64,000 bases of DNA from an uncultured virus (IMG/VR IMGVR_UViG_3300028591_000107). Taxonomy: Duplodnaviria; Heunggongvirae; Uroviricota; Caudoviricetes. Position 1 is the first letter of the stretch. Each line of letters begins with the position of its first letter. Location: the IMG/VR virus record IMGVR_UViG_3300028591_000107; one strand, written 5' to 3'. Below are positions 649-19,162 of the stretch, one piece after another. The position numbers and the translations under genes were made by a program. A model generated the notes under the pieces. It was not told the origin of the DNA. It was given only the letters and a program-made list of their open reading frames with translations, and did no database searches.

Positions 649-743
649 AATCCTCATTCATAAAAACTACCATATTCCATAATGAGCATATGTACACTAT
701 CTCAAAACTTCATTACTCTCATTAGTAATCCTGATTCAAAATG

Positions 744-1349: not shown

Positions 1350-1357
1350 CTTTTTAT

Positions 1358-1394
1358 AAAAAAATAAGTGGTTAGATTTTTTCTAACCACTTGT
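1358..1394 (-). terminator. Intrinsic terminator of attenuator 1
   Basis: ACAAGTGGTTAGA-AAAAA-TCTAACCACTTA then U-tract; 5' arm complementary to 1441-1449. Confidence 0.85.
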
Positions 1395-1437
1395 CTTTTA
1401 TTATTATCGTTCTATTTTATTATTTATCCTATATCTA

Positions 1438-1542
1438 TTAACAAGTGGTCATACACATATATATCGCATAATCTTTATTCCAATCATTATTTAATAATGT
1501 TTGGTTAACTGCATATTTATATGTCTTATTTATCACTTGCAT
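1438..1542 (-). CDS. Putative attenuator leader peptide, 34 aa MQVINKTYKYAVNQTLLNNDWNKDYAIYMCMTTC
   Basis: ATG..TAA read manually; its 3' end is complementary to the downstream terminator arm. Confidence 0.75.
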   Translation of the reverse strand: MQVINKTYKYAVNQTLLNNDWNKDYAIYMCMTTC

Positions 1543-1601
1543 TTGTAATTTTAATATTTATAATTTATAATAGTACTTTTTTCTAAAAAAGTTTAATAAT
1601 T

Positions 1602-3780: not shown

Positions 3781-3849
3781 TATTTAACTATTATTAATAT
3801 ATATTAAAATAGTATTTAATATTTCTATTTTTAAATTAATTAATTAATT

Positions 3850-4662: not shown

Positions 4663-4690
4663 AATGGGTATTCATTCGAATACCCATTTA
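4662..4690. terminator. Bidirectional terminator between convergent genes
   Basis: AAATGGGTATTC-ATTC-GAATACCCATTT hairpin. Confidence 0.75.
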
Positions 4691-4695
4691 TATAT

Positions 4696-5901
4696 TTAAT
4701 GTTTTGCAAGTTCTTCTTCAATTTTACTCATCATTTTCTTTACTTTATTAACATATTCTTGAGCATCATTAATCGCTTCCTGTGCTCTTTCATCATTATA
4801 TTTTCTATAAATCTTTGGATTATCAGCCTTATGATCTTTAGCCGTTTTTTCATCTTTATCTGCTTGATATTTTGATTTTACAGATTGATAAAATGATTTA
4901 TATGAACTTGATACATAACTCATGAGTTCACCCATATCAAAATATATATCAAGATATTCAGGTTTAGACATTATCTTTTCATATAACTTAATGACTTCTT
5001 CATTTGTTTTTTTAATCTCTTCAAAAAAATCTTTACTATTATCTTGTAATTTTTTGGCACGCATTGCATCTGCTAATACTTTATATCTAGAACGTTGTAA
5101 CTTAAGTAAATTATCTAAAGATTTCTTATCATAATTAATTACACCCTTTTGTGATTCGGTGCGGGTATCAATTAAATCTTTATAGTCTTTAATCATATCA
5201 TTAGTAATTTCTAATGCATAAACCTTTATTCCTGGAACTTCGGCAAGTTCATTAAGCATATCGATAACTTCTCCTGCCTTAAGTGGACGTGTTTTATATG
5301 AATAATAATCCTTAAGATATTCTTTAAGTTCACTATTAATTTTATATTTAGTGCCATCACCATATTTTGCCATACGTTCTGATTTAAAGTAATACATTCC
5401 ATCAGATTTTGCATCTTCTCCATATGCTTTAATAAAATTAATTATATTACCATCTGGATCCGTAATAATATAATTTGCATTAGCATCAGCCTTTCCATAT
5501 GTTTTTTTAATAAGTTTTATTAATGCCTTATCATTTGGTACATATTCTTTAAAATCATTATCAGTAATTTCAGACCATTTTAAACCTTGTATACCTTTTT
5601 TATCAGGACCATAACGTAGAGATTTTACTTTAGGACCAAATATAGAAGCAAAATTAGTTAAGTTAGGATCATGCTTAGATCCATCAGAATATGGATATCT
5701 TTCATCTTGATCCTTAGCTCTTTCTATTTTTTTAATGTTGTTATCCTTTTCAATATCATAAATTTTCTGTGCTAATTTTTGAACTAATGTAGATTTAAAT
5801 GATTCATTAACTATTTCATCACTAACAATTATATTAATCATTTCATTAATGACTAATACATCATAATTATAATCATTTAAATATTCTAATAATTGTTTCA
5901 T
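4696..5901 (-). CDS. Hypothetical protein, probably virion-internal
   Basis: 401-aa ORF; N-terminal MKQLLEYL..INE..VNES resembles prohead-protease processed leaders. Confidence 0.6.
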   Translation of the reverse strand: MKQLLEYLNDYNYDVLVINEMINIIVSDEIVNESFKSTLVQKLAQKIYDIEKDNNIKKIERAKDQDERYPYSDGSKHDPNLTNFASIFGPKVKSLRYGPDKKGIQGLKWSEITDNDFKEYVPNDKALIKLIKKTYGKADANANYIITDPDGNIINFIKAYGEDAKSDGMYYFKSERMAKYGDGTKYKINSELKEYLKDYYSYKTRPLKAGEVIDMLNELAEVPGIKVYALEITNDMIKDYKDLIDTRTESQKGVINYDKKSLDNLLKLQRSRYKVLADAMRAKKLQDNSKDFFEEIKKTNEEVIKLYEKIMSKPEYLDIYFDMGELMSYVSSSYKSFYQSVKSKYQADKDEKTAKDHKADNPKIYRKYNDERAQEAINDAQEYVNKVKKMMSKIEEELAKH

Positions 5902-5937
5902 TTATGTATTATTATATTTATTTAAAAATAATAAATA

Positions 5938-5971
5938 AAAAAGAAGATTAGCAAATTAACTAATCTTCTTT
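5938..5971 (-). terminator. Terminator at the end of the large tRNA operon
   Basis: AAAGAAGATTAG...CTAATCTTCTTT hairpin with T-tract. Confidence 0.8.
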
Positions 5972-5976
5972 ATAAG

Positions 5977-6056
5977 TACCTCCCCTGGGATTCGAACCCA
6001 GACCCAATTAAGGACCGCTTTTGAGACGGCTGCGTAGACCATTCCGCCAGAGAGGC
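5977..6056 (-). tRNA. tRNA-Leu(CAA)
   Basis: Cloverleaf with variable arm, loop CTCAAAA. Confidence 0.9.
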
Positions 6057-6080
6057 ATATCATATTGATACAACAAATAT

Positions 6081-6329
6081 TTAATTTATCTTATACAATT
6101 CTTCCTTTTCTATTGCCCTTCTAATCCATCTCATCAGAATTATACATTTATCATAATGAGTTAAAAATATAGCAGTTTCACCAACATCATGTTTATCGGA
6201 CAAATCTATATCAAGTGAATAAATTGTACTATCTTCTACTGTTATATGATAAACAGCTATTCCTCCGGATTTTATACAATCAAGTTCGGCAGAACCTTTT
6301 ACAATAGTTTTTAAATCATGAGTAATCAT
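6081..6329 (-). CDS. Small hypothetical protein inside the tRNA array
   Basis: 82-aa ORF with AT-rich initiation region. Confidence 0.7.
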   Translation of the reverse strand: MITHDLKTIVKGSAELDCIKSGGIAVYHITVEDSTIYSLDIDLSDKHDVGETAIFLTHYDKCIILMRWIRRAIEKEELYKIN

Positions 6330-6357
6330 ATTTTATTTATTGAATTTTATTTATATG

Positions 6358-6451
6358 ATGTGTAGTAGGCTATCGAAACCTACCCGTAAGGATGTATAGT
6401 ACCCTACTTTCCACGAATGTTTATAAACTATACTTATAAACACATACACAT
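6358..6451 (-). ncRNA. tRNA-like element (acceptor stem and T-like arm, non-canonical middle)
   Basis: ATGTGTA/TACACAT stem, GTAGG-TTTCGATAG-CCTAC arm. Confidence 0.45.
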
Positions 6452-6496
6452 TCTCATTTAGTTTTTCGTTTCGGCAAAAACTAACAAAAACCTCAG

Positions 6497-6577
6497 TGCG
6501 TCTGGTGGGACTCGAACCCACACCTCCGAAGAGCTAGATCCTTAGTCTAGTGCGTATCCCAATTCCGCCACAGACGC
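6497..6577 (-). tRNA. tRNA-Leu(AAG), A34
   Basis: Anticodon arm CTAGA-CTAAGGA-TCTAG, type II variable arm. Confidence 0.9.
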
Positions 6578-6714
6578 ATTATATATTTCCTATACAAGAG
6601 ACCCTTGGATTAATGAGTAACGATAACCACTCATCTTGTAGTCATTGGAAATATTTTTCTAACAGTTTTATTTTAACCGGATAAACTTGTTATTAAAACG
6701 CGGTATCGTATTTG

Positions 6715-6788
6715 TTGGGCTGGTCAGAGTCAAACTGACGATCCCTTGCGTGTAAAACAAGTGCTTTAAATCACTAAGCTACAGCCCA
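6715..6788 (-). tRNA. tRNA-Val(TAC)
   Basis: CTTGT-TTTACAC-GCAAG. Confidence 0.85.
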
Positions 6789-6867
6789 ATAAATGACGGT
6801 TCCATTATGTAAACGGCGATGCGCATCGCTGTGCCTATGCTGAAAGTCACCGACAACCAAAAGTACG

Positions 6868-6939
6868 TCGGGATAACGGGACTCGAACCCATAACTTCTG
6901 CTTCAGAGGCATTTGTGTTCACCATTACACCATATCCCA
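6868..6939 (-). tRNA. tRNA-Gln(CTG)
   Basis: TGGGATA acceptor, loop CTCTGAA. Confidence 0.8.
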
Positions 6940-7149
6940 ATAAAACCAGTATTTTGAGACTGGTAACTCACAATCCTTGCTTTTTCTGGGGAATTGCTCG
7001 TGTTTTTGGACCGCTAACTTTTTAATTCAAAGGACATCCGTTCCTCCACGATACAAGGCCTCATCATCCTTTATTGACACATGTAGAATGCCATTCTACT
7101 TCTCTTCGTATTGTGCCCGATACTAGTCGGTGCGTTATTCCAACAGGTG

Positions 7150-7236
7150 TCGGGATAGAGAGATTCGAACTCTCACGTATCATTTTCAACGCCAGATTCT
7201 AAGTCTGGTGCGTCTGTCCATTTTCGCCATATCCCG
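7150..7236 (-). tRNA. tRNA-Leu(TAG)
   Basis: CCAGA-CTTAGAA-TCTGG, long variable arm. Confidence 0.9.
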
Positions 7237-7268
7237 ATTTGCCAAAATGATGGAAAGGTAGACATCGA

Positions 7269-7327
7269 TGGTAACGTTGGAATCGAACCAAATAGCTAGC
7301 ATACATGTACCATTTACTGCGTTACCA
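7269..7327 (-). ncRNA. Mini tRNA-like RNA lacking an anticodon arm
   Basis: GGTAACG/CGTTACC acceptor, GTA-AATGG-TAC D-like arm, TTGG-TTCGATT-CCAA T arm. Confidence 0.6.
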
Positions 7328-7334
7328 ATGTAAA

Positions 7335-7403
7335 AACCTCCCATAGGAATTTAACCTACATCTCTTGGTAAAATCCAAGGCTCTAACGTTGAGCTAAAGA
7401 GGT
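7335..7403 (-). ncRNA. tRNA-like RNA with 6-nt anticodon loop and degenerate T loop
   Basis: GCTC/GAGC D stem; CTTGG-ATTTTA-CCAAG. Confidence 0.55.
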
Positions 7404-7405
7404 AG

Positions 7406-7493
7406 CGGAGAGCACCGGAGTCGAACCGGAGCCGAAATTACCGACCGAAGCGGGTTAGCAATCCGTCCTTATCACCGTCAAAGTTTACTCTCC
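7406..7493 (-). tRNA. tRNA-Ser(GCT)
   Basis: GGAGAG acceptor, G73, long variable arm, loop TTGCTAA. Confidence 0.85.
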
Positions 7494-7580
7494 AATAAAT
7501 TCTTTAATTTGTTTAATAACTTCTTTTGTATTATTACAACAATATTCCCAATCTATTCTTAATTTTGTCCAATTTTGTTT
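7485..7580 (-). pseudogene. C-terminal remnant of a DUF559/Vsr-like endonuclease
   Basis: Frame KQNWTKLRIDWEYCCNNTKEVIKQIKEFIGE* resembles the C-terminus of 10615..11547; no start codon. Confidence 0.5.
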
Positions 7581-7622
7581 AAAATAAAAAATAAGGCTAT
7601 TAACCTTATTTTTAATGTTAAT

Positions 7623-8099
7623 TTAAAATTTTATTTTGTTAGTATACTTAAATAAATATTCTAATGAATCAGTATATAAATCTTCATACTTTTCATCATA
7701 AGAAGATTTTTTAATTGATAATGTTATGAATTCATCTTGATTAATTAATTCTATTTGACAAACTGGTTTATTATCATTTTCAAAATTAATATCTATTCCA
7801 TTATATCTTTTCCTACCAATATTTGTTGTTAATGAATTCAATTTTATTATTAACTTATTACCTAATATATTTTTATTGATTTCTTGTTCACAATCTTTAA
7901 AATATTTTAGTATTGATATTGATTTTTGAATTTCTGGATATTTTTTAAATTGATTAAATTTGTAATAATACTTACCAAAATCAATTTTATCATATTCAAA
8001 ATCATATTTACTTAAAAAGGAATATATTGGATAATTATTAATTTTTGTTTTACTATTAATTTTTAATTTTTCATTTATAAAATCAATTATTTTTTGCAT
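7623..8099 (-). CDS. Hypothetical protein with MxxIxDFINEKLKI N-terminus
   Basis: 158-aa ORF; terminator-like hairpin near 7590-7612. Confidence 0.65.
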   Translation of the reverse strand: MQKIIDFINEKLKINSKTKINNYPIYSFLSKYDFEYDKIDFGKYYYKFNQFKKYPEIQKSISILKYFKDCEQEINKNILGNKLIIKLNSLTTNIGRKRYNGIDINFENDNKPVCQIELINQDEFITLSIKKSSYDEKYEDLYTDSLEYLFKYTNKIKF

Positions 8100-8342
8100 A
8101 TTAAATTATTTTATTTTTTTGTCTGTTATAATTAAAAATAAATATTTATTACAAACCAAATATAAAAATATCTTTACATTCCACTATCCTGTACAACTGT
8201 CAATCAAGCGTTGCCTACAGTAACTTCTCCAAATCATGTTTATATGAACACTATTGTTATGTCCTTTAAGATATTTAAATACATTGTTTAACTGGTACAA
8301 TGTATAAAACCTCGATAGAATCTTACTATAAGTAAGATTTCG

Positions 8343-8414
8343 GGGGTTATGCCGGAGTCGAACCAGCCTAGTGAGAACCACAACCTCATGTCCTACCGAT
8401 GAACGAATAGCCCC
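8343..8414 (-). tRNA. tRNA-His(GTG)
   Basis: G-1/C73, loop TTGTGGT. Confidence 0.85.
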
Positions 8415-8609
8415 ATATAAGTCAATTCTCTAAAAGAGGTGTTGCCAAAACTTAAATTGACAAATAGATTTCTCACCCGAGACCTCCGGAGTTTTCCTTG
8501 ATATCATTGCTGACCGTACTTCCACCTATCTCTTTGGGATAACCCACTACTCCAATTGGTGTTCCTTAAAATCTATCAATATTAGTTTTAATATTAGTTT
8601 TGCTCTTAG

Positions 8610-8694
8610 GGTGTTAGATGGGATTCGAACCCACATTGAGATAAACTCGATGATTCACAGTCACCTGCCTGTAACCAATTCGGCTACTAACACC
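8610..8694 (-). tRNA. tRNA-His(GTG) with long variable arm
   Basis: G-1/C73; GGTGA-CTGTGAA-TCATC; variable arm GAG-TTTAT-CTC. Confidence 0.8.
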
Positions 8695-8886
8695 ATATAA
8701 AAACAGGTCAACCATTTTCCCTGTTATGTCCCGATATGAACACATGTAAACATTGTATTAACAGTGTTACTAAGTTTTTCACCATAATCAAGGCTTATAG
8801 CTGCACAAGCAACGAGGACGGGATTTCAACTTTAACCTCTAAAATGGCCTACACGGATTTTAAGAGGCTGTAGGGAATCCTCATTG

Positions 8887-9031
8887 AGTGGACAGTTGGA
8901 TTTGAACCAACATTTCCGGCTTGGAATGCAATAATTTGAAGTACCTCTCAACTACAACAATCTTCCGATGTAAAAGCGTTAAAAGTTAATAAAAAATTTT
9001 TAACGGCGTACTACCCTTATACGATATCCAC
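8887..9031 (-). ncRNA. tRNA-Gly-like body with a Y-RNA-like stem inserted in the anticodon arm
   Basis: GTGGATA/TGTCCAC acceptor, intact D and T arms; insert carries TGTTGTAGTTGAGAGGTACTTC. Confidence 0.7.
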
Positions 9032-9145
9032 ATAAATGATAGAAACCACTTAAACTATCATATATAATTACTTACAGTTAATTATACATTTTTTATATCG
9101 ACCTGCTGTAAGAACCTTTATCGATACTGGACTATTTTTATTGTG

Positions 9146-9217
9146 AGCGGCGTACCAGATTCGAACTGGCTCCTTAAGAATGGCGATCTCATATGCAACC
9201 ATTAACACCTACACCGC
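9146..9217 (-). tRNA. tRNA-Gly(GCC), C33
   Basis: GCG acceptor, U73, loop TCGCCAT. Confidence 0.85.
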
Positions 9218-9249
9218 ATATTCGGTTTTACTTAGATCCGAAAACTTAG

Positions 9250-9380
9250 TAGCGCGGGTTGGACTCGAACCAACATAAGATTGTTTGACATACAATTGTG
9301 TAAACCGAAGTAACTCTTATCTACAGCATTCATTAAGAAGCAACAACGAAAAAAGTATTAAAATATTTCACCACCGCGCT
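9250..9380 (-). ncRNA. tRNA-like/Y-RNA-like hybrid
   Basis: AGCGCGG/CCGCGCT acceptor, T arm, motif TGCTGTAGATAAGAGTTACTTC. Confidence 0.65.
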
Positions 9381-9457
9381 GGTAGGGATAACGGGATTCG
9401 AACCCGTATCTTTGCCTTGAGGGGGCAACCACCTGAACCTATTAGTATGATATCCCC
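9380..9457 (-). tRNA. tRNA-Glu(CTC), C33, encoded CCA
   Basis: TTGCC-CCCTCAA-GGCAA. Confidence 0.85.
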
Positions 9458-9470
9458 ATATAAATTTATG

Positions 9471-9542
9471 AGCGGGATAACGGAATCGAACCGTCATATC
9501 CAGCTTGGAAGGCTGGCATAATAACCATTATACTAATCCCGC
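9471..9542 (-). tRNA. tRNA-Gly(TCC)
   Basis: CCAGC-CTTCCAA-GCTGG. Confidence 0.95.
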
Positions 9543-9654
9543 GGATGGAGGTACCTTTATCACTATCAGAATCCCTATTGTTTTACTTCATGACTATTAG
9601 TTTATCACAAGCTTTATTGATACTTAATAACCATTGCAAGTGAACCTCCATATG

Positions 9655-9731
9655 TACCGCCGGTCAGAATCGAACTGACATGAAACCAATTAACCTTTCA
9701 ACGCCTTATGAGAGCGAGGGTATACGGCGGC
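9655..9731 (-). ncRNA. D-armless tRNA-like RNA, CAT anticodon, long variable arm
   Basis: GCCGCCG acceptor, TATACCCT linker, CGCT-CTCATAA-GGCG, variable arm with AATTGG loop, T arm. Confidence 0.65.
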
Positions 9732-9739
9732 ATAATAAG

Positions 9740-9813
9740 TTGGGATGATAGGACTTGAACCTACGACCTCCATCTTATCAGGATGGCATTCTAACCAACT
9801 GAAATACATCCCA
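9740..9813 (-). tRNA. tRNA-Ile(GAT)
   Basis: CCATC-CTGATAA-GATGG. Confidence 0.95.
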
Positions 9814-9819
9814 ATATAT

Positions 9820-9943
9820 AAAATATGTTAACCAATTACACCAATGCCAGATTTTACACTTTCAGATTAATATTCTAGAACTATTAACCATCAATCATAT
9901 AGATTTCGATACTGGCATACAGGGCTCGAACCTATATCATTTT
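9820..9943 (-). ncRNA. Circularly permuted tRNA-like element with a large insert at the acceptor end
   Basis: Order T arm, ATGCCAG, insert, CTGGCAT, D arm. Confidence 0.6.
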
Positions 9944-9946
9944 AAG

Positions 9947-10021
9947 TTGGGGAACCGAGACTCGAACTCGGAACTTCAGCTTCAAAGGCTGACGTGTTAA
10001 CCAATTACACAGCATTCCCCA
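9947..10021 (-). tRNA. tRNA-Gln(TTG)
   Basis: TCAGC-CTTTGAA-GCTGA. Confidence 0.85.
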
Positions 10022-10067
10022 ATAAAATGGTGATTCATCACATTACGGTTACAACCACCAAAAAACC

Positions 10068-10160
10068 GAAATCATGTAACTATCGGTAAAAGTATTTTGT
10101 CTTATGGATCTGAGTGAAAATCGGATTTGAAGTAACTCTTACCTTTCAACAAGAGGATTC
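10068..10160 (-). ncRNA. Y-RNA-like stem RNA
   Basis: TGTTGAAAGGTAAGAGTTACTTC paired with ACTTTTACCGATAGTTACA. Confidence 0.6.
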
Positions 10161-10161
10161 G

Positions 10162-10235
10162 TAGGGAGGCCCAGATTCGAACTGGGATTGGAAACGTATC
10201 AGATTTCTAGCCTCAACCATTTAGCTGATCTCCCC
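10162..10235 (-). tRNA. tRNA with GAT anticodon (Ile), atypical body
   Basis: GAAAT-CTGATAC-GTTTC. Confidence 0.7.
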
Positions 10236-10453
10236 ATATTGGTGTTTAAGGATAACACCAAAACCCATTTTAGTGTTTTAATCAACTAAAGTTCTGTTCC
10301 ATCTCGCTCAATGTATTTAAGCTAAAGCCTGTGGAAGGTCTTTCTTAATGCGCACTCGATTATGTCACCTTCAGCAAGTGTTATGTGATTTATTTCCGGA
10401 TTGACCCATAACGCTAATGCCAACTTTACCCATCTATCTGGGATGCGAACTTG

Positions 10454-10529
10454 TAGGGATAATGGGAATCGAACCCGTATTTCCACCTTGAAAGGGTGAC
10501 TACCTGAACCAGTTAGTAATGATATCCCC
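10454..10529 (-). tRNA. tRNA-Glu(TTC)
   Basis: TCACC-CTTTCAA-GGTGG; body similar to 9380-9457. Confidence 0.9.
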
Positions 10530-10537
10530 ATAAAATT

Positions 10538-10614
10538 ATTCCTGTAACAATCGAATAAAGTATATTAAATAAAACCAAAAATTATTGAAGTAACTCTATT
10601 CTACAACAAGGAAT
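10538..10614 (-). ncRNA. Y-RNA-like stem RNA
   Basis: TGTTGTAGAATAGAGTTACTTC paired with ACTTTATTCGATTGTTACA. Confidence 0.6.
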
Positions 10615-11547
10615 TTATTTTTTATAATATTCAAGAAATTTATTTATTTTTTCTTGCATTAATTTCTTTCCATTTTCTGAATTAATTTCATTCCATGGTA
10701 TTCTATAAACTTCTATTCCTTTAGATTTTATATATTTATCTCTAATTTTGTCTGATTCTTTTCGATCTTCATATAAATGTTGTTTACCATCTATTTCTAG
10801 ATCAATTTTTCTATTATTTATTTCAATATAAAAATCCAAAAAATATCTTTCACCATTATGTAAATCCCCATATTCTAATAAATATTCTCTAATATAAGGA
10901 ATTGAATTATTATCTAAAACTTGTTTCCAAAATTTTTCAGCATAACTTATAATATTTCTAGATTTCCATCCTTGAAATGTTCCATTTTGGATTTCCTTTT
11001 GTCTTAATAATGACATTTGTTTAGATATTGATTTTTGTCTACATTCATCAGAACAATATTTTTGAAATTTATTACTTTCAAATTCTTTATTACAATATTT
11101 ACATATACATTTTCGAACACCATAAATATATTTTCCATATTGATTAGCTAATTTATATTTATGTTGTTTAATACCTTCAACAAATGTATTAGATATTTTT
11201 TGTTTTGTTTCTTCGGATCTTAAACCTTTTTTCTTATTTCCTAATGCTGAACCACAAGATTGATTACAACATTTTGCAAATCTTTTTTCAAATGGTAATT
11301 TCTTTCCACAATATTCACAATATTTAGGATTTAAATCATAATCTCTTTTTTGAATTTCTAACCAATGATTAGATAAATTCTTTTTAGAAATTTGTTCTTT
11401 AGAATCAATTCCTATTTGTGAAAAATATAAAAGAATATCTTTATCTATAAATCCTCCATTTTGATTAGTACGAATATTTAACTTTTTACAAATTTCTGAT
11501 TTTGACTTAGAATAATCATAAATATTTTGAATTTCCTCTTTAGTCAT
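10615..11547 (-). CDS. Putative free-standing homing endonuclease (DUF559/Vsr-like C-terminus, Zn fingers, NUMOD3-like repeat)
   Basis: CxxC motifs, RSEETKQKIS, YFLDF...LEIDGKQH...D..RD...VYRIPW. Confidence 0.8.
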   Translation of the reverse strand: MTKEEIQNIYDYSKSKSEICKKLNIRTNQNGGFIDKDILLYFSQIGIDSKEQISKKNLSNHWLEIQKRDYDLNPKYCEYCGKKLPFEKRFAKCCNQSCGSALGNKKKGLRSEETKQKISNTFVEGIKQHKYKLANQYGKYIYGVRKCICKYCNKEFESNKFQKYCSDECRQKSISKQMSLLRQKEIQNGTFQGWKSRNIISYAEKFWKQVLDNNSIPYIREYLLEYGDLHNGERYFLDFYIEINNRKIDLEIDGKQHLYEDRKESDKIRDKYIKSKGIEVYRIPWNEINSENGKKLMQEKINKFLEYYKK

Positions 11548-11622
11548 TTTAATTATTATATATTTAATTAAAAATAGTAAAAATTTGTCAAAAAATTCAA
11601 ATTCGAACTAACAATTTTATAG

Positions 11623-11695
11623 TCGGGAATGTTGGATTTGAACCACTCCTCATCACCCCAAATGACGTATGCTACCTGTTTACACTACATTCCCG
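11623..11695 (-). tRNA. tRNA-Pro(TGG) with 8-bp acceptor and 4-bp T stem
   Basis: CGGGAATG/CATTCCCG; loop TTTGGGG. Confidence 0.75.
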
Positions 11696-11702
11696 ATTAT
11701 TG

Positions 11703-11775
11703 TATGGGTAGCCGGACTCGAACCGACAACAGCGTGCTTCCAATGCACGTCGTCTACCTATTGACGTATGCCCAT
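11703..11775 (-). tRNA. Atypical tRNA with TGG anticodon (Pro?)
   Basis: CGTGC-ATTGGAA-GCACG; A1-U72, A32, A37. Confidence 0.6.
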
Positions 11776-11786
11776 ATATTATATTG

Positions 11787-11859
11787 TGGAGCGGGTGTGA
11801 ATCGAACACACATTGCCGGATTTTCAGTCCGGTGCATTGACCAACTCTGCCACCGCTCC
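11787..11859 (-). tRNA. tRNA-Phe(GAA)
   Basis: CCGGA-CTGAAAA-TCCGG. Confidence 0.9.
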
Positions 11860-12013
11860 AAATATACCTTGAACATCCCATGTATCTGAACTCTGGTATC
11901 ACCTATTCTCTCACCGTGGCCTTAGGGTCTTGATTTCGGAGTTTTGAAAGGTTCTCAAGTTTTTGTTACTCATAAGAGCAGTCCGGACACCTTCCCAAAC
12001 GAGGACATGCATG

Positions 12014-12086
12014 TGGACCGGAGTGGATTCGAACCACTGACACCCAGATCTTCAATCTGGTGCTCTACCAACTGAGCTACCGGTCA
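12014..12086 (-). tRNA. tRNA-Phe(GAA)
   Basis: CCAGA-TTGAAGA-TCTGG. Confidence 0.9.
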
Positions 12087-12157
12087 ATTTGTGAGTCTTA
12101 CCTCACAGTAGTTAAATCTTTTTATCATTATATGAAGACCTAACAGAAACACTTGCG

Positions 12158-12229
12158 AGGGCCCATGCGGAGTCGAACCGCACTACCAGGTTTTGCAGAC
12201 CCGTACATAAACCGCCCTGACCTAGACCC
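12158..12229 (-). tRNA. tRNA-Cys(GCA)
   Basis: CGGGT-CTGCAAA-ACCTG, U73. Confidence 0.9.
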
Positions 12230-12362
12230 ATTATTATAGATATATGATAATGATATTGTTACCATACGCTGGCAGGATTCGAACCAAACCAGCTCGCGGA
12301 CTCGATCCACTCTTCACATTACCAAGGAAACCATTCCTTATGGGATATATCTATTATAAGTT

Positions 12363-12510
12363 AATTTACGGAATAATCGAATAAAGCTTAATATTAGCCG
12401 TGTTTACCAATTTCACCACCATGGTACATAATGACCATGGGCCGGATTCGAACCGACAAGGATAACATCCAGCCATTTCTTGAAGTATCTCTATTCTTCA
12501 CCAGCAAATT
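12363..12510 (-). ncRNA. YrlA-like Y RNA (terminal stem plus permuted tRNA module)
   Basis: 5' stem strand, T arm GTCGG-TTCGAAT-CCGGC, acceptor-like hairpin CCATGGT/ACCATGG, D arm, 3' stem strand. Confidence 0.75.
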
Positions 12511-12512
12511 TG

Positions 12513-12603
12513 CGGAGATGGCCGGATTCGAACCGACACACCGTTTTACCGATTACTACCTGTTTTCAAGACAGGGCCCTTGCGCAATTAGGGTTACATC
12601 TCC
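12513..12603 (-). tRNA. tRNA-Ser(TGA)
   Basis: CCTGT-CTTGAAA-ACAGG, long variable arm, G73. Confidence 0.9.
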
Positions 12604-12613
12604 AATTATGTAT

Positions 12614-13351
12614 TTAAATATTATCATATAAAATTTCCCAAAATTTGTCTCCATATTTAGATGTAACATAATCAAGATAATATTTTACATCTTTATAATA
12701 TAAAACTTTTATATCTGGATTTTGTAATTCTTTTTGTTTCCACTGTTTACTTGAATATCCTTTAATTTCAATTATACCATCATCTGTTATAAAATCAGGT
12801 ATGGATATATGTTCTTCATTATTAAAAATATATTTTCTATGTTCTTTACATCGTGATATATTTAAACCATGTTCTTTATAATAACATACAAATGCTAATT
12901 CCCAAGAACTATCACAAAATATATTTTTATACCAACCTTGTTTACCTATACCAGAACCTTTACGATATCCTCCGACTAATGGATTTTTTTTCATTGTTTC
13001 GGATATTTTTTTTCTACGTTCATCTTCCTTTTCAGAAGTGGATGCAATACCTTTTGCTTTACCTTTTAATGAATTTGATATTTTTTCTTTATATTCATTA
13101 TCTAAACCAAGTTTCCATCCATCTTTAATATAATTATCTAAATCATCTCTTAAAATAAATTTTCGTTTACCATCTTTATGAATAAAAGTTCGATTTAAAG
13201 ACCATGTATTAGGATGACCTTTATAATTTATTTTAATCTTTTGTGGATTTTCTTTACATCTACATTCATGTTGTTTTAAAGAATTTAATGACATATATTC
13301 TTTTCCACAATATTTACAATAACACTGCTGTTTTTTATTAAAATTATTCAT
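12614..13351 (-). CDS. Putative PD-(D/E)xK homing endonuclease with Zn finger and NUMOD3-like repeats
   Basis: CKYCGK, RRKKISETMK, DSSWEL, PDF...IIEIKG. Confidence 0.8.
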   Translation of the reverse strand: MNNFNKKQQCYCKYCGKEYMSLNSLKQHECRCKENPQKIKINYKGHPNTWSLNRTFIHKDGKRKFILRDDLDNYIKDGWKLGLDNEYKEKISNSLKGKAKGIASTSEKEDERRKKISETMKKNPLVGGYRKGSGIGKQGWYKNIFCDSSWELAFVCYYKEHGLNISRCKEHRKYIFNNEEHISIPDFITDDGIIEIKGYSSKQWKQKELQNPDIKVLYYKDVKYYLDYVTSKYGDKFWEILYDNI

Positions 13352-13425
13352 ATATTATAATATAGTACTTTATAATTAATAATAATAATTTTTAATAAAA
13401 TCAAGACAAGCACTATTACCATTTG

Positions 13426-13512
13426 CGGAGAGATAGGGACTCGAACCCTAAAACCGTTATTAGCGATCTGCCAATTTTCAAGATTGGTTCCTCATCCAGC
13501 CGGATCCTCTCC
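13426..13512 (-). tRNA. tRNA-Ser(TGA)
   Basis: CCAAT-CTTGAAA-ATTGG, long variable arm. Confidence 0.85.
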
Positions 13513-13516
13513 GAAT

Positions 13517-13630
13517 AGATTCCGTAGGATTACAATCGTCCACTCTGCCACCGCTCAAAGAACGAAGGGGATTCGAACCCCTGGCCTTCCTAAAGATTTC
13601 TCTTTCAAGAAATAGGCATCCATAGAATCT
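13517..13630 (-). ncRNA. Circularly permuted tRNA-elbow RNA
   Basis: Closing stem AGATTC/GAATCT; T arm AGGGG-TTCGAAT-CCCCT, hairpin TCGTTC-TTT-GAGCGG, D arm. Confidence 0.7.
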
Positions 13631-13933
13631 TTATTTAAAAAATGTAGGCGGGCTTCTCACCACTTAGTTGCGTCTCATCCATTACTGGAGCGTCCTTCTT
13701 GTTTCTATATTTCACAATATAGATTTTCTAGACGACTACAAATTATGTCTCATTCTACAGTGATTGTGTTCTGTCTTTACACCCACGTTCATACTTGATA
13801 AATCGACAAATTTTATCTTTCTTACTTGCGACCGGAGTTTGGTTACTCCGCGGTAATCTTACTCACAACTTAATGTCGAGCAGTGATCCTTAATTCCCGC
13901 TTTGGAAAACTTCCTCAATTTGTAGAGAAATAT

Positions 13934-14008
13934 ATTTGTTGTATCAATCCCGAAGGTTTGAAATAACAAAATTTTTTAATATTTGTTGTATCAATATGTC
14001 AAAGAACT
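13934..14008 (-). repeat. Operon leader element: boxA-like plus UUCG hairpin, copy 2
   Basis: Near-identical to 341-418. Confidence 0.8.
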
Positions 14009-14033
14009 ATCAATTTTAGAAATTGAGAAAAAT

Positions 14034-14109
14034 ACTCTAATGTTCTACCATTAAACTATCATGCAGTTATTCACCACACTTGAAGGGGTTGAACCTTCAT
14101 TTTTAGAGC
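14034..14109 (-). ncRNA. Minimal circularly permuted tRNA-like RNA
   Basis: GCTCTAA/TTAGAGT terminal stem enclosing T arm, acceptor-like hairpin and D arm. Confidence 0.65.
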
Positions 14110-14113
14110 TTCG

Positions 14114-14187
14114 TACTCGGTACGGGACTCGAACCCGTGATCTCCAGAATGAAAATCTGACGTCCTAACCAACTAGACGAACCGAGC
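14114..14187 (-). tRNA. tRNA-Glu(TTC), first gene of the large operon
   Basis: TCAGA-TTTTCAT-TCTGG. Confidence 0.95.
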
Positions 14188-14195
14188 ATTTAATA

Positions 14196-14262
14196 TTTTA
14201 AAGAACACTTTTATTTTATGTTTTACATATATTATATAGAAATCAATTTATAAAAATTCAAA
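14196..14262 (-). promoter_or_regulatory. Promoter-like motif plus boxA-like GTTCTTTAAAA
   Basis: Same layout as 1286-1349. Confidence 0.7.
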
Positions 14263-14282
14263 CTTTTTTTAAATTTTTTCAT

Positions 14283-14320
14283 AAAAAAATCTCCAAAACT
14301 TTTGTAAGCTCTGGAGATTT
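14283..14320 (-). terminator. Intrinsic terminator of attenuator 2
   Basis: AAATCTCCAGAGCTT-ACAA-AAGTTTTGGAGATTT then U-tract; 5' arm complementary to 14356-14364. Confidence 0.85.
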
Positions 14321-14343
14321 ACATATATGATTATACTATATAA

Positions 14344-14466
14344 TTACACTTCCATATCTCCAGAATATTCGCACATAGGTTCTTGAAAAAGACCGAACAA
14401 GCCACAAGGTTCTCCTGAAAAAGAAGAACTACCAAGAATAATAATATGTGAGCTAAATTGTGTCAT
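14344..14466 (-). CDS. Putative attenuator leader peptide, 40 aa MTQFSSHIIILGSSSFSGEPCGLFGLFQEPMCEYSGDMEV
   Basis: ATG..TAA read manually; composition mirrors the downstream tRNA set. Confidence 0.8.
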   Translation of the reverse strand: MTQFSSHIIILGSSSFSGEPCGLFGLFQEPMCEYSGDMEV

Positions 14467-14645
14467 TTTTTCTGAAGTTTTATTGTTTATTTAATTTATA
14501 ATAGTATTTTTTTCTAAAAAAGTTTAATTTTTTATTAATTTTTTTATAAAATATTTTAATGATATATCTTATATATAGATAATAAGATGTTATTTTTAAA
14601 TAATATAATTATTATATAGTAACTAAATATATAAATTTCAAATAA

Positions 14646-17600
14646 ATGTTTAGATCATTATTAAGAACTTTACCTTCGCTTAGTGGTAATTTTAAATTAG
14701 CATGTAAAATAGATCATATAGATAAAACATATAAGTTAAATAATATTGATGTATATGAAGTATCAATAAAAAAATGTTCTTTACAACCATTACAAAATAA
14801 AATGTATAATAGAGACATTAATATTAATTTAACTAATAATTCTTATGAATATGATATTTGTAAATTTTATAATAAATATCGAGATAAATTTTATGATGTA
14901 AATTATATATTTAATGAAACTGATTATAAATATTGGAACCCAGTAATTAATGATGATTCATCTGTACGTAATAAAGATTATGAGTATGGATGTAAACGTT
15001 TATCATATTATAATACTGGATATCAATTTGAATTTTATGCACCTATTTATATTGATGAATCTAATGATTTACCAAAATATTTTGATATTTATGTTTATTT
15101 TAATGATTATAATATGAAAATTCTTCGCATTAATATAGATAATGATAATGAATCAAATTATTTATATCAATACATAAATAAGTATCTTTCAAAAATAAAT
15201 AGTAATATAATATATTTTGATGATAATAGTCAACAAGCTACATATTTTGGATTAGATGTTTTAAATGGAGGATTAACTTCTATAAAAGATAGTATGGTAA
15301 GTATATTATATAAAGAACAATTACCAATAAATCAATTTAATAAAATAATTAATAATGGATTTGAACGTAATAAACTTATTATGCGTCAAATTATTCCTTT
15401 AGCATTCCAATTTAATATTGAATCTTTATTATCTAATGGTGATGTTGAAAATTTTTATTATAAAGACATAAATATTAAAGGAAGTTATGTTAATAAAAAT
15501 AATTATAAATTGTCTTTATATGATATTGAACATTCTGGTGATGAATTATTTATAAATCGAAATTATAATAATGAAAATATTATGTTTCATAATTCATTAT
15601 ATTCTCTTTATGAAAAACAATTAAACATATATAAATATGATAATAAAATAAATATCAATTGGAATCACTGGAAATTACAATTATCTAATGAAGATAATCC
15701 ATATTATACAAATATTAATATTAATTATAGTGGTGTTAATGGCAAATATGGGAATTTTCCAAATATTGGAGCAACAAGACAAATATTATTAAATGTAATT
15801 AATACAAATGATATTTATGATATTGAATATTTTGAAAACACAGATGATTACATTTATAATTTAAATCAAAATATTTCATCATGGTATAAACTATTAAATT
15901 ATGATGATTATAATAGTTTAATTAAATATAATAAAGATTTTTTCAATAATGAAAATAATTGGTTTAATATAAAAAATAATTATGCATATGTAAATGGAAT
16001 TTTATATAATTTAAAAGATATCTGTACAATAAAAAATATAGATAAATTAGATTATTTTAATGTGTTTGTTTATCCTAATTTTAATATTATTGATAATTTT
16101 GGAAATTCAATTTCTTCAAACTATACAATTGAATATTCAAAAATAAATAGTCTTAAACGCAGATATGATTTTAATAAACATTTATTTTATATTAAAAATG
16201 AATCTAATGAAACTAATGCAAATTTTGTTCCATTTAATATTTCAACCAATAATATATTTATTAAATCAACATATAATTTAAACAATAAACAATATATCTT
16301 TAATAAAAATGAAAATAATGTAATATATTATGATATTGATGAATTACTTAATGAATTAGAATTAGATGAAAAAATTAAAGAATCTTTTAAAGAATCTTTA
16401 TCTGAATATTTAATAAATGCATATTGTCAAATTTCTAATATATATATTATTAAAAATATAGATGAATTAATAAAAAATAAAAATATATATTCTTTATCTA
16501 ATATATATTATAAATATTCTTTAGATGAAAAGTATAATTCATTTACAAATATTTCATTAAACACAGATTTAAATAGTTTAAATACAAAAGAAATTAGTCT
16601 TTATAGTAAAAAAACGTTTATATCAAGAACAGATTTATTAAATAATAAAGAATTATTATCAAAAAATAATATAAATATTAATATAAATGATCTTAATAAA
16701 TATGAAATGGTATTAACAGATAAAGATATATATTTTAAAGAATATGTTCCTTTAGCCACTGATATTTATTATATTGATAAAGATTCAAACATTGAAGGAT
16801 ATTGTAGAATAGAAAATTATGAACAATTTGAATTTGTAAAACAATATAAGTTTGAAATAGTTATAGTAAAAAATAATATATTAATAACCGAAAATAATAT
16901 AAAAATACAAAATCAAAAATCAATCACTATAAATGATACTAATAATATTGAATATTTAAATAATGGATTTTTTGTATATAAAGGTGAAACAGTAAAATTA
17001 TATTATAAAGCTAAATTAACGAAAGTTACTGATGATATTATTAATACTATCGTCGGTAATAATACATATTTTTTATATATTAAAGAATTAAATGAAGATA
17101 AATTAAAAAATATTACAAAATATGAAATATCTGAAAATATTGATAATGAAATAAAAGTATTTACTCCTATATTTAATTCTGTATTTAAACATGAAGATTT
17201 ATATTATCAAAAGAATTTAATAGAAAATGAAAATATTTGTTATAAAATTGATAATAGTGATGAAACAATTTATAAATCATTTAATGATAAACCTAATAAT
17301 ACAGATAAAAAAATTGTATATTTAAGTAATTCACAAATAAAATATAAATATATTGAAGAAATATCATTAGAAGATATTATTAAAAAACTTGCAAATATTA
17401 TTTATAATAAAATTAATAATGAGCAAAATAATTTATATAATAAATTTAAAATTATATTAAAGTTATTAATAGACAAAAATGATTATAATATTATTGACAA
17501 GTTAAGTATTGAAAATTTAAATAATTATGATAATATTTATAAATTTATAACTGGTTTATTAAATGTATTAAATAAATATAAAGATATATTTATAGGAAAG

Positions 17601-18545
17601 GAAATAAAAAATAATGTATATTCTAATATTACTTATGATGATGTTTATAGTAAAGATATTGTTAATAATATTATAAATAGTGAAAATATTAACGATAAAA
17701 TAAATAAAATTATAATTAGTATAATCATAAATATTTTATATGGAAAAGAATCTAATGGAATAATTAAAAAACGAGATTTTAGTAATAGTAAAATAAATGA
17801 CGATTATTTTAAAGTAAAATTTTATAATTATGAAAATATATTAAAATATTCATACGCAGTATCATATAGAACATTATTATTTAATATTTTATTAAAGGAT
17901 TTTAAAGAAGATGATAAAGATATTTATAATATTAAGAATAATAATCAATCTTTAGATGAATTTATAGAAATTGATAATATAAATAGTGAAAATAATGATG
18001 AATTTAAAATAAACAATATAATATTATTGTTAAAACATATATATGATACTAATTATGATCATTTTATTGAATTATTAAAAGAAGATTATAAATTAGAATT
18101 ATATGAATTAAGAAATAATAATTATTTTGATATATTAGATAAGGATGATAATTATGTTAATATATTTACTGATGATAAAGGTAAAAAATATGGATATATT
18201 ATATATCGTCCATATATAGATAATACTGTTAATACATATAATATTGAAAATGCGATATTATTTAATAGTATTTATTCACATAAATTTAGTGATAATACTA
18301 AAAATAATGAAAAAATATTTATTAAATATTTTAATGATTTAGTTCCATATTTAAAATTTAATTTCTTTACATATTATATATTTAGTATTAATAGTAAATA
18401 TAATAGTATGATAATTAATCCTTATAGATATTTATTAGAAGATAAATATTATATTAATAAAACTAAAATAAAACCTGATTATAAATATGTAGATTCATTT
18501 AGTTATTTAAGTGATTTAAAAATTATGATTTACAAAATTATATAG
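14646..18545 (+). CDS. Large Asn/Ile-rich hypothetical protein, probably structural; likely continues into 18635..19162 via a -1 shift
   Basis: 1299-aa ORF. Confidence 0.75.
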   Translation: MFRSLLRTLPSLSGNFKLACKIDHIDKTYKLNNIDVYEVSIKKCSLQPLQNKMYNRDININLTNNSYEYDICKFYNKYRDKFYDVNYIFNETDYKYWNPVINDDSSVRNKDYEYGCKRLSYYNTGYQFEFYAPIYIDESNDLPKYFDIYVYFNDYNMKILRINIDNDNESNYLYQYINKYLSKINSNIIYFDDNSQQATYFGLDVLNGGLTSIKDSMVSILYKEQLPINQFNKIINNGFERNKLIMRQIIPLAFQFNIESLLSNGDVENFYYKDINIKGSYVNKNNYKLSLYDIEHSGDELFINRNYNNENIMFHNSLYSLYEKQLNIYKYDNKININWNHWKLQLSNEDNPYYTNININYSGVNGKYGNFPNIGATRQILLNVINTNDIYDIEYFENTDDYIYNLNQNISSWYKLLNYDDYNSLIKYNKDFFNNENNWFNIKNNYAYVNGILYNLKDICTIKNIDKLDYFNVFVYPNFNIIDNFGNSISSNYTIEYSKINSLKRRYDFNKHLFYIKNESNETNANFVPFNISTNNIFIKSTYNLNNKQYIFNKNENNVIYYDIDELLNELELDEKIKESFKESLSEYLINAYCQISNIYIIKNIDELIKNKNIYSLSNIYYKYSLDEKYNSFTNISLNTDLNSLNTKEISLYSKKTFISRTDLLNNKELLSKNNINININDLNKYEMVLTDKDIYFKEYVPLATDIYYIDKDSNIEGYCRIENYEQFEFVKQYKFEIVIVKNNILITENNIKIQNQKSITINDTNNIEYLNNGFFVYKGETVKLYYKAKLTKVTDDIINTIVGNNTYFLYIKELNEDKLKNITKYEISENIDNEIKVFTPIFNSVFKHEDLYYQKNLIENENICYKIDNSDETIYKSFNDKPNNTDKKIVYLSNSQIKYKYIEEISLEDIIKKLANIIYNKINNEQNNLYNKFKIILKLLIDKNDYNIIDKLSIENLNNYDNIYKFITGLLNVLNKYKDIFIGKEIKNNVYSNITYDDVYSKDIVNNIINSENINDKINKIIISIIINILYGKESNGIIKKRDFSNSKINDDYFKVKFYNYENILKYSYAVSYRTLLFNILLKDFKEDDKDIYNIKNNNQSLDEFIEIDNINSENNDEFKINNIILLLKHIYDTNYDHFIELLKEDYKLELYELRNNNYFDILDKDDNYVNIFTDDKGKKYGYIIYRPYIDNTVNTYNIENAILFNSIYSHKFSDNTKNNEKIFIKYFNDLVPYLKFNFFTYYIFSINSKYNSMIINPYRYLLEDKYYINKTKIKPDYKYVDSFSYLSDLKIMIYKII

Positions 18546-18634
18546 ATAATAGTAATAATATAAATATATGGAGATTATCTACATATGATTTATTAAAACA
18601 TAAAAATCCTCAAAAAATTACAATTTATCGTTAT

Positions 18635-19162
18635 ATGAATTTTATATCGCCAGTATTTAAAAAGGTGAACAATATAAAAACATATCAATTAAAATATAAA
18701 AAATTTAATTATAATTTTGATGATGACAATATTTATTTAACCAATATAAATATACATACATATTCTCCAGTATATATATTCAGTAATAAAACAGATAAAT
18801 TTTATGATTATCTTATTAGTAAAAATTTACCTAATTCAATTACTACTGAATATGAATATGAATACAAATCATTTAATGATAATTTATATTATTTATTAAA
18901 ACCTTCATTTGAGGTAAGTGTTGAAAACCTTTTAACATATGAACAATTATTAGAATATGAAAATGCTATTAATACATATAATACATTTAAAAAATATATT
19001 AGTCAATTTATAAAAACTAATAATTATAATTCAGATGAAGAAAATAAAATATTATTTTTATTTAATAAATATGTAGTATCATATCATTCTATAAGTGTTA
19101 AACTTAATACATATCAAAATAAAAAATTATACAAACTAAAATATATTTTTAATATTATATAA
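18635..19162 (+). CDS. Probable C-terminal part of the preceding protein (frame open from 18515)
   Basis: -1 frame opens at TTTAAAA. Confidence 0.6.
   Translation: MNFISPVFKKVNNIKTYQLKYKKFNYNFDDDNIYLTNINIHTYSPVYIFSNKTDKFYDYLISKNLPNSITTEYEYEYKSFNDNLYYLLKPSFEVSVENLLTYEQLLEYENAINTYNTFKKYISQFIKTNNYNSDEENKILFLFNKYVVSYHSISVKLNTYQNKKLYKLKYIFNII

Follow-up and report, generated by a model that had tools for sequence, protein, structure and literature searches.

What function does a short open reading frame (ORF) serve when it stands, together with an intrinsic terminator, at the head of an array of phage transfer RNA (tRNA) genes? The question is raised by a 64,000-nucleotide stretch of DNA from an uncultured virus of the Caudoviricetes (IMG/VR record IMGVR_UViG_3300028591_000107), to which we refer throughout as the window. 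On its minus strand, an 8-kb block of tRNA genes is preceded by an ORF of 40 codons; an earlier note, made from the sequence, had read this arrangement as a leader-peptide attenuator whose codons mirror the tRNAs encoded downstream. The comparative tests described below (conservation of the ORF, a covarying RNA pairing, and leader codons that track tRNA gene content) support that interpretation: as judged from these sequence comparisons, the module is probably a ribosome-mediated (leader-peptide) transcription attenuator that stands ahead of a phage tRNA operon.

A leader ORF with complementarity to a downstream terminator

The leader ORF comprises 40 codons plus TAA (14344..14466, minus strand; product MTQFSSHIIILGSSSFSGEPCGLFGLFQEPMCEYSGDMEV); its codons 3-30 form the proposed sensing zone, and the peptide ends in the tail SGDMEV. 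It is followed by an intrinsic terminator (14280..14320, minus strand), with its 5′ arm at approximately 14320-14306, its 3′ arm at 14301-14287 and a U-run at 14286-14280: a hairpin of 15 pairs with a loop of 4 nucleotides (nt), succeeded by TTTTTTT. In a terminator scan of positions 5000-16000, this hairpin (14320-14287) ranks at the top of eight terminator-like sites, where 4.5 were expected. Downstream lies the tRNA block itself (5976..14187, minus strand), in which 22 tRNAs are interspersed with homing-endonuclease-like ORFs, and which is closed by another terminator (5940..5971, minus strand; 13 pairs, then a T-run) directly after tRNA-Leu(CAA). The order of ORF, terminator and tRNA block that the earlier note had described is thus confirmed by the ORF calls and by the terminator scan.

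Within the 3′ part of the leader ORF is a putative antiterminator strand (14355..14366, minus strand), hereafter strand 2, which ends 11 nt before the ORF does. Its core, TCTGGAGAT (14364-14356), is the exact complement of ATCTCCAGA (14318-14310) in the 5′ arm of the terminator, and this 9-nt match bears out the complementarity that had been claimed. As a measure of alternative pairing, we compared the best duplex between the last 60 nt of a leader and its own 5′ arm with those of 1000 dinucleotide shuffles; for the window this duplex has a value of -15.0 kcal/mol, as against -9.4 ± 2.3 for the shuffles (P = 0.02), and RNAduplex places the partner of strand 2 at 14319-14308. None of ten non-cognate arms equals the window's own pairing. 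Furthermore, when the transcript is folded without the 3′ arm, 12 of the 14 nt of the 5′ arm are predicted to pair with the ORF. The entire leader also folds better than its shuffles (z = -2.84).

An Rfam scan of window positions 1-20000 (E ≤ 1) returned no family over the leader stretch, no leader family and no T-box. The window ORF has no match in Pfam, and six leaders that were scanned have none in PHROGs or NCBIfam (E ≤ 0.1). There is no Shine-Dalgarno sequence at the leader ORF, nor at any of 38 long ORFs of the window phage.

Leader codons match the tRNA content of the window block

The 22 tRNAs of the block (14187-5976) cover exactly 11 amino acids: C, E, F, G, H, I, L, P, Q, S and V. 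Anticodons were obtained with ARAGORN, and four of the 22 calls are weak: Cys(GCA) (12229-12158) comes from Rfam alone, at 31.9 bits, with its anticodon deduced from stem-loop geometry; Ser(GCT), Gly(GCC) and the second Ser(TGA) needed a lowered ARAGORN threshold, and each coincides with an Rfam match. The Leu tRNAs of the block are Leu(AAG), Leu(CAA) and Leu(TAG), with no Leu(TAA).

What the earlier note had said of the leader's codons holds in every particular, including the confinement of the sensing zone to these 11 amino acids. All 28 of codons 3-30 fall within the block's set; so do 34 of the 39 codons after the start codon, the exceptions being T2, M31, Y34, D37 and M38. The leader contains no K, N, R, A or W; in the proteome of the window, N and K account for 10.5% and 10.0% of residues, respectively. 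Its Leu codons are CTT, TTG and CTT, matching Leu(AAG) and Leu(CAA) (TTA makes up 67% of the Leu codons of the proteome), and all three of its Ile codons are ATT, matching Ile(GAT). Relative to the window proteome, the match is highly significant at the amino-acid level (34/39, for an expected fraction of 0.52; P = 10^-5.3) and at the codon level (29/39, for an expected fraction of 0.37; P = 10^-5.6). Since the G+C content of the leader exceeds that of its flanks, we also shuffled the leader's own bases: in 1000 such shuffles without in-frame stops, the mean match was 26.2 at the amino-acid level (observed, 34; P = 0.003) and 19.8 at the codon level (observed, 29; P = 0.002). The match therefore beats shuffled controls, which was one of the checks that the earlier note had proposed.

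A set of fourteen related modules

Relatives were reached by way of the UvsX-like recombinase that is encoded in the window; seven of its ten closest loci were searched (L002, L003 and L007 were left out). BLAST of the leader in the records of these seven relatives located it at the orthologous place in five (G001 to G005), each with the order small ORF, terminator, promoter of the type that we name P2 below, GTTCTTTGAAAT box, and tRNAs; the small ORFs end in SGDMEV, SGDAEI, SGDMEG or MGDMEV. Additional modules emerged from scans with a tail pattern (GGN GAY ATG GAR GTN TAA), which imposes the tail but not the small ORF, the terminator or the tRNAs. Among viral contigs this pattern had 37 matches, of which four are family members, two of them new (L067, here G008, and L082, here G009). 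Among metagenomes it had at least 118 matches; six were left after a filter for G+C < 0.36 and an ORF of 15-70 residues, and the contigs accepted among the matches listed are L179, L145, L180 and L195. Four of the viral-contig matches represent one unrelated 37-residue ORF (MSYRQ...) and were not counted, nor were matches that end longer proteins; from the metagenomes we rejected L112, which is the same unrelated MSYRQ... ORF, and L123, which is without tRNA and apparently uses a different genetic code. Similarity searches added a second module in the window (win2), a second in G001 (G001_2) and a degenerate one in G005 (G005_1). In total, 14 modules were curated, two from the window and the others from seven related viral records and three metagenome contigs, G004 having been omitted as identical to G001 at the leader place. 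Two extra scans for orthologues of the type-1 modules found just the four already known, among the matches listed.

BLAST of window positions 13900-14700 against 50,697 phage records matched the tRNA-Glu gene only (16 records), and in none was the leader covered; an exact 21-mer from the leader had no match, and among viral contigs there was no relative for the first 400 residues of the neighbouring 1299-residue protein.

The fourteen modules share two features. In all of them the leader frame is open from ATG to stop over 14-43 codons, while the other two frames contain 1-9 stops each; this holds also for the AT-rich type-2 leaders, and it provides the conservation of the ORF in related phages that the earlier note had asked for. 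In all of them, too, an intrinsic terminator follows 24-54 nt after the leader, and these terminators belong to seven families of stem sequence. In L145, L180 and L195 the first tRNA begins approximately 10 nt past the terminator's U-run; a promoter would not fit into a gap of this size, and the tRNAs of these three modules thus appear to be entered by read-through alone.

The second window module (1356..1596, minus strand) consists of a 36-nt box (1596-1561), an ORF (1542-1438; MQVINKTYKYAVNQTLLNNDWNKDYAIYMCMTTC) and a terminator (1392-1366, plus a U-run), and it heads an Ala/Thr tRNA block that runs past the start of the window. Its antiterminator strand (1452-1439) pairs with 1396-1383 (duplex value -17.4; P = 0.001). 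G001_2, G008 and L179 are its orthologues. Where relatives read HGDMEV, the second window leader has a premature stop; the 12-bp antiterminator pairing is retained.

Two further observations concern individual leaders. An Arg-type leader of G005 (MMNYDNILRRRTWT; L228 2648-2790) is truncated by TAG and is left with a decayed GDMEV tail and without an antiterminator pairing; it still precedes an Ile tRNA and five tRNA-Arg genes, and it looks like a module in decay. Upstream of the leader in L145 (approximately 930-1120) are four tandem copies of a promoter-like unit of approximately 47 nt (TTTGAATTTTTTGAATTAAAACATTTTTAAAAAATC).

Leader codons follow the tRNA block between modules and genomes

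The most direct comparison is offered by G001, which has two blocks: block 1 covers C, E, F, G, H, I, L, M, P, Q, S and V, and block 2 covers A, D, K, L, M, N, Q, T, V, W and Y. If residues are counted that are specific to block 1 or to block 2, leader 1 has 24 and 4 of these, respectively, and leader 2 has 6 and 21 (Fisher P = 2.4e-6). A matrix of 11 leaders by 11 blocks gives the same picture: enrichment of the type-1 leaders is confined to type-1 blocks, and that of the type-2 leaders to type-2 blocks. In the shuffle control across modules, the codon-level match is significant in 9 of 11. The tRNA blocks behind the leaders have different sets: S F G E P H L I C Q V; K N Y D T Q A W; Arg; and R/H/C/W/I/F. 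An example of the last of these is the leader of L180 (MNKIMRHISFCSWCFNSINAGDMEV), which contains R, H, I, F, C and W and precedes a block of Arg-His-Cys-Trp-Ile-Phe. The leader of G009 (MKNYNNISRRRNRNITIMGDMEV) precedes a 91-residue ORF and five tRNA-Arg genes; Arg codons make up 4 of its 22 (P = 10^-2.6 versus the proteome, 0.11-0.12 versus shuffles).

Tracking can also be followed among the four type-1 modules, down to single tRNAs. TTA codons occur only in the G001 leader, and ATA occurs twice in G001 and once in G002; of the type-1 blocks, only that of G001 was found to have Leu(TAA) and Ile(TAT) tRNAs. Likewise, R is confined to the leaders of G002 and G003, both of which precede a block with tRNA-Arg, and W to that of G002, whose block has tRNA-Trp (the G002 array is assumed to run on from the end of its contig to the start). 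Taking the variable tRNAs of these four blocks together, leader content follows presence (Fisher P = 0.03). One misfit is that the G002 leader has Ile codons, and no Ile tRNA was detected in its block. The matches are also unevenly placed: own-block residues are specified by 176 of the 212 codons that stand 15 nt or more before the antiterminator strand, versus 58 of 131 in the tail. Leader codons thus track tRNA gene content both within G001 and between genomes, which was one of the tests that the earlier note had named.

The alternative pairing in the other modules

The duplex between a leader's end and its own 5′ arm reaches P ≤ 0.05 in 10 of the 14 modules and P ≤ 0.01 in 8, and the cognate duplex is stronger than that with every 5′ arm of another family in 11. 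Specific complementarity to the own 5′ arm is found in four of the seven stem families, that of the window included. Alignment A1, of the four type-2 modules, gives an antiterminator helix of 12 pairs that is 93.8% paired and contains three compensatory pairs, a result equalled by 8 of 500 shuffles; the type-2 terminator is 100% paired. Two of these three compensatory pairs lie upstream of the terminator stem, and so they cannot be a by-product of its upkeep. With four sequences, this covariation is supportive rather than decisive. Together with the seven different stem sequences, these results amount to a pairing that co-varies, for which the earlier note had proposed a test.

Before the 3′ arm exists, the 5′ arm is predicted to pair with the leader ORF in 11 of 14 modules; in the complete transcript, the terminator is predicted in all 14. 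In 10 of 13 modules, strand 2 comes to within 0-17 nt of the end of the ORF (G005_1 was excluded from this count because its duplex of -2.1 kcal/mol is unusable as an antiterminator). In minimum free energy folds, strand 2 pairs at or near the start codon in the eight modules of type 1 and type 2.

The GDMEV tail

Nine of the 14 leaders end in GDMEV, six of these having come from the search with that very motif; two more have the variants GDAEI and GDMEG, and the ending is absent from win2, G001_2 and G005_1. The tail varies mostly at synonymous positions (Gly as GGA, GGT or GGC; Val as GTG, GTA or GTT). Both G001 leaders have AEI or TEI in place of the tail's end. In win2 and G001_2, the terminator and the pairing have survived the loss of GDMEV. 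A slowing of termination by the tail would be our guess as to its contribution.

Promoter-like sites and associated boxes

A promoter-like class with the pattern TTGAAW..N..CTATATWAT has 13 matches in the window, all on the minus strand, versus 1.4 expected; its sites include 14611-14641, 14231-14261, 1318-1348, 52073-52103 and 58349-58379. The first of these, P1 (TTGAAA-N-CTATATAAT; 14611..14641, minus strand), matches the class pattern and lies approximately 145 nt upstream of the leader's start codon. Between P1 and the leader is a 36-nt box (14492..14527, minus strand), possibly a leader-specific promoter, control site or operator. This box has two copies in the window (14492-14527 and 1596-1561), both just upstream of leader ORFs, and none in 100 shuffles; the two copies differ solely at the pattern's single N position.

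Between the terminator and the first tRNA is the internal promoter-like site P2 (TTGAAT-N-CTATATAAT; 14231..14261, minus strand), an exact match to the class pattern. By inspection, a P2-like site stands at the equivalent place in the sequences of close relatives. The second promoter-like motif that the earlier note had described after the terminator is therefore present in the window and its close relatives, and is absent from L145, L180 and L195, in which the tRNA follows the U-run so closely. Where P2 is present, as in the window, the attenuator would add to basal expression rather than gate it.

A GTTCTTTAAAAT box (14195..14206, minus strand) stands just ahead of tRNA-Glu and is a possible 5′ leader or processing signal of RNA units. 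This box (GTTCTTTRAMAT) has seven copies in the window versus 0.12 expected, and five of these lie in the two tRNA regions; the copies are at 14195-14206, 13996-14007, 1285-1296, 468-479, 406-417 and 4538-4549 on the minus strand and at 35324-35335 on the plus strand. The same box stands ahead of the first tRNA in relatives.

Proposed mechanism

Bearing in mind the codon content, the alternative pairing and their joint conservation, we propose the following sequence of events; in it we infer that the leader is translated, which way the switch works and what sets it off physiologically (starvation or a host anticodon nuclease). P1 and/or the 36-nt box would start the leader RNA, and the 40-codon ORF would be translated while RNA polymerase advances. 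Its first 30 or so codons would sample the tRNAs that are encoded downstream: if a charged tRNA is scarce, decoding would be slow and the ribosome would lag. The lagging ribosome would leave UCUGGAGAU, near the end of the ORF, free to pair with the 5′ arm of the terminator; the terminator would not form, and polymerase would enter the tRNA genes. With quick decoding, a ribosome at the stop codon would instead cover the UCUGGAGAU stretch, the 15-bp terminator would form, and transcription would end. The net effect would be that tRNA supply feeds back negatively on tRNA synthesis, one block at a time.

A more far-reaching version of this proposal, which we put forward tentatively and consider rather less likely to be right than wrong, is that the tRNA genes are parcelled into blocks, each under a leader written in its own codons, and that the phage gauges how fast each codon class is decoded and turns on only the tRNA set that is failing. 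The modules would then act as detectors of host tRNA shortage or of cleavage by anticodon nucleases, and the GDMEV-stop tail would slow termination and thereby hold the antiterminator strand while the terminator forms.

Weighing the attenuator against alternatives

Several observations weigh against an attenuator. Because P2 sits between the terminator and the tRNAs, the tRNAs of the window and its close relatives are independent of read-through. The duplex is weak in L145 (P = 0.056), and it is also weak in G005_2 (P = 0.09), G009 (P = 0.43) and the degenerate G005_1 (P = 0.31), which leaves three of the seven stem families with no specific antiterminator. In G001_2, L195 and G005_2, there are 21-36 nt between strand 2 and the end of the ORF, so that a terminating ribosome would be too distant to mask it. 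An anti-antiterminator (a 1:2 helix) is stronger than in shuffles (P < 0.05) in just 2 of 14 modules. The simple attenuation model gives the conserved GDMEV tail no role. As for the codons, G009 and G005_1 are non-significant versus shuffles at both levels, and L180 and L145 are so at the amino-acid level; the L145 leader retains a CGA (Arg) codon, and its block is without tRNA-Arg. In the window, base composition accounts for part of the codon enrichment (the shuffle expectation is 26.2/39, not 20.3), but not all of it, given the shuffle P values of 0.003 and 0.002. The modules are mutually related, so that the per-module P values are not independent. Finally, leader translation and regulated read-through enter the argument by inference.

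One alternative is that the ORF, with a promoter and a terminator to itself, is an ordinary gene for a small protein. Its GDMEV-ended peptide of 23-43 residues would act in trans (on a protein of the host or the phage, for example), and the tRNAs, transcribed from P2, would be mere neighbours. Retention of the C-terminal motif through synonymous third positions, while the remaining peptide varies, is what such a gene might display; the four type-1 peptides have further residues in common (S-x-H, E-x-C-G), and in the window there is a consensus promoter between terminator and tRNAs. We consider this explanation unlikely, however, since it accounts neither for a peptide body whose composition changes with the tRNA block that follows, nor for the compensated complementarity between the 3′ part of the ORF and its own 5′ arm, nor for the spacing of approximately 10 nt between terminator and tRNA in L145, L180 and L195. 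Moreover, GDMEV is lost from 3 of the 14 modules, and although one of these is the degenerate G005_1, the other two (win2 and G001_2) keep terminator and pairing; nor did the peptides match a protein family (the window ORF in Pfam, six leaders in PHROGs and NCBIfam). That same compensated pairing bears on a different idea, namely that a translated leader does sense decoding, but that the output is transcript processing or stability, or else that the terminator merely insulates the operon from upstream transcription. P2 and the GTTCTTTRAMAT boxes do suggest independent downstream transcription and processing signals, and the 1:2 helix that is expected of a classical attenuator is weak. We regard this idea as quite improbable: a co-varying pairing of ORF and 5′ arm would serve no purpose, and modules without P2 require read-through.

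It might also be argued that there is no leader peptide, but a non-coding RNA or a chance ORF in a structured region of richer G+C (0.31-0.36 in the leader ORF versus 0.08-0.2 in its flanks), with the amino-acid set as a by-product of base composition. The fold of the leader, which beats shuffles (z = -2.84), is in keeping with this, as is the share of the enrichment that composition explains. Yet a chance ORF would hardly be open in 14 of 14 modules with the other frames closed, the AT-rich type-2 leaders included, and the codon-level match survives composition shuffles in 9 of 11 modules; no Rfam family lies on the stretch at E ≤ 1. This explanation we judge very improbable indeed.

Genome context and other features of the tRNA regions

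The window encodes a UvsX-like recombinase, SbcCD-like nucleases and an NAD-dependent ligase, and its base composition is very AT-rich. Since its closest relatives by UvsX (76-83% identity) are uncultured viral contigs of up to 435 kb, we take the window to be a piece of a jumbo phage. The public sequencing runs that contain the stretch are labelled as sheep or bovine gut metagenomes.

Twenty-four public runs contain part of positions 12000-15500, and six of these are RNA libraries, all as contigs. When positions 13300-15300 were examined with three RNA runs and one DNA run, RNA contigs covered 13509-14278 and none covered 14305-14438, while the DNA run covered everything; contigs cannot show transcript ends or absence, and so we draw no conclusion from this coverage. 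Positions 13679-13932 (minus strand), between tRNA-Glu and the next tRNA-like gene, have contigs from all three RNA-library runs at the highest depths of the region (up to 1229); this stretch has no Rfam match at gathering score, and its fold is no better than that of shuffles (z = -1.1). It may be an abundant RNA.

Two homing-endonuclease-like ORFs of the tRNA block (12614-13351 and 10615-11547, minus strand) have PHROG endonuclease and HNH matches; ORFs of this kind sit among duplicated tRNA genes and tRNA-like fragments (12230-12511). With a low threshold, ARAGORN called a tRNA-like gene with anticodon TCA at 10453-10543 (minus strand), and in G001 and G008 a tRNA with anticodon CTA ends block 2 (L232 129-200; L229 10629-10702). 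These may be suppressor tRNAs, hinting at stop-codon recoding in this phage group. After the promoter of the second window module is a conserved stretch of approximately 450 nt (830-1290, minus strand; GAACTCAAGAAA...) with higher G+C and a T-arm-like element; in G005 and G009, ARAGORN called genes that resemble transfer-messenger RNA (tmRNA) (L228 11170-11550 and L230 8691-9079, respectively). The conserved stretch may be a phage tmRNA-like or intron-bearing RNA.

Comparison with known systems

Genes for tRNAs are usually described as promoter-controlled, through growth-rate and stringent control; discussion of phage tRNAs usually turns on help with codon usage or on making good the tRNAs that host defences cleave. 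Full-text literature searches brought up no description of tRNA-gene attenuation in the titles and abstract openings of the articles returned. What would be new here, and is supported by the comparisons above, is that an attenuation logic of a known kind is apparently applied to phage tRNA genes. If this is true, decoding speed feeds directly back on tRNA synthesis, and phages regulate their tRNA sets by codon class; the module would represent a compact natural sensor of tRNA availability, and its spelling a rule that predicts which tRNAs a phage expects to run short. Furthermore, a testable function would be gained for the small ORFs next to tRNA arrays that gene callers and annotators pass over.

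T-boxes provide one point of reference: in these, as proposed here, the state of a tRNA chooses between terminator and antiterminator upstream of translation-related genes. A T-box, however, makes direct contact with uncharged tRNA and does not need translation; the conserved ORF of the phage module argues for a sensor based on the ribosome instead. The TnaC, SecM and Erm leaders also have a conserved C-terminal motif by the stop codon of a short leader that is otherwise variable. They differ in that GDMEV is missing from three phage modules, two of which (win2 and G001_2) keep the switch, and in that no link of the phage leader to a small molecule is known. In pheST, an aminoacyl-tRNA synthetase operon is attenuated through the pheM leader, so that, as would be the case here, a gene of the translation apparatus is placed under a leader that reads out the state of the matching tRNA through its codons; pheST/pheM is bacterial, however, concerns a single amino acid and has a protein-coding target.

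A close parallel is with the leaders of enterobacterial amino-acid operons (trpL, hisL, leuL and pheL), and with the multivalent ones in particular, namely those of thr, with Thr and Ile codons, and of ilvGMEDA, with Ile, Leu and Val codons. The differences are several. Downstream of the phage leader are 22 tRNA genes and homing-endonuclease-like ORFs, rather than biosynthesis or synthetase genes; up to 11 amino acids are represented, and their codons are scattered instead of standing in tandem; the antiterminator strand is part of the ORF's 3′ end, and a 1:2 helix is not evident; the phage leader has a conserved GDMEV tail, occurs as several differently spelled copies per phage genome, and matches no Rfam leader family (E ≤ 1) and no NCBIfam leader peptide (E ≤ 0.1). 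The likeness lies in the architecture: in both, a short leader ORF stands between promoter and operon, its codons mirror the supply that is sensed (or, in the phage, would be sensed), and it is followed by a terminator whose 5′ arm has an alternative pairing partner.

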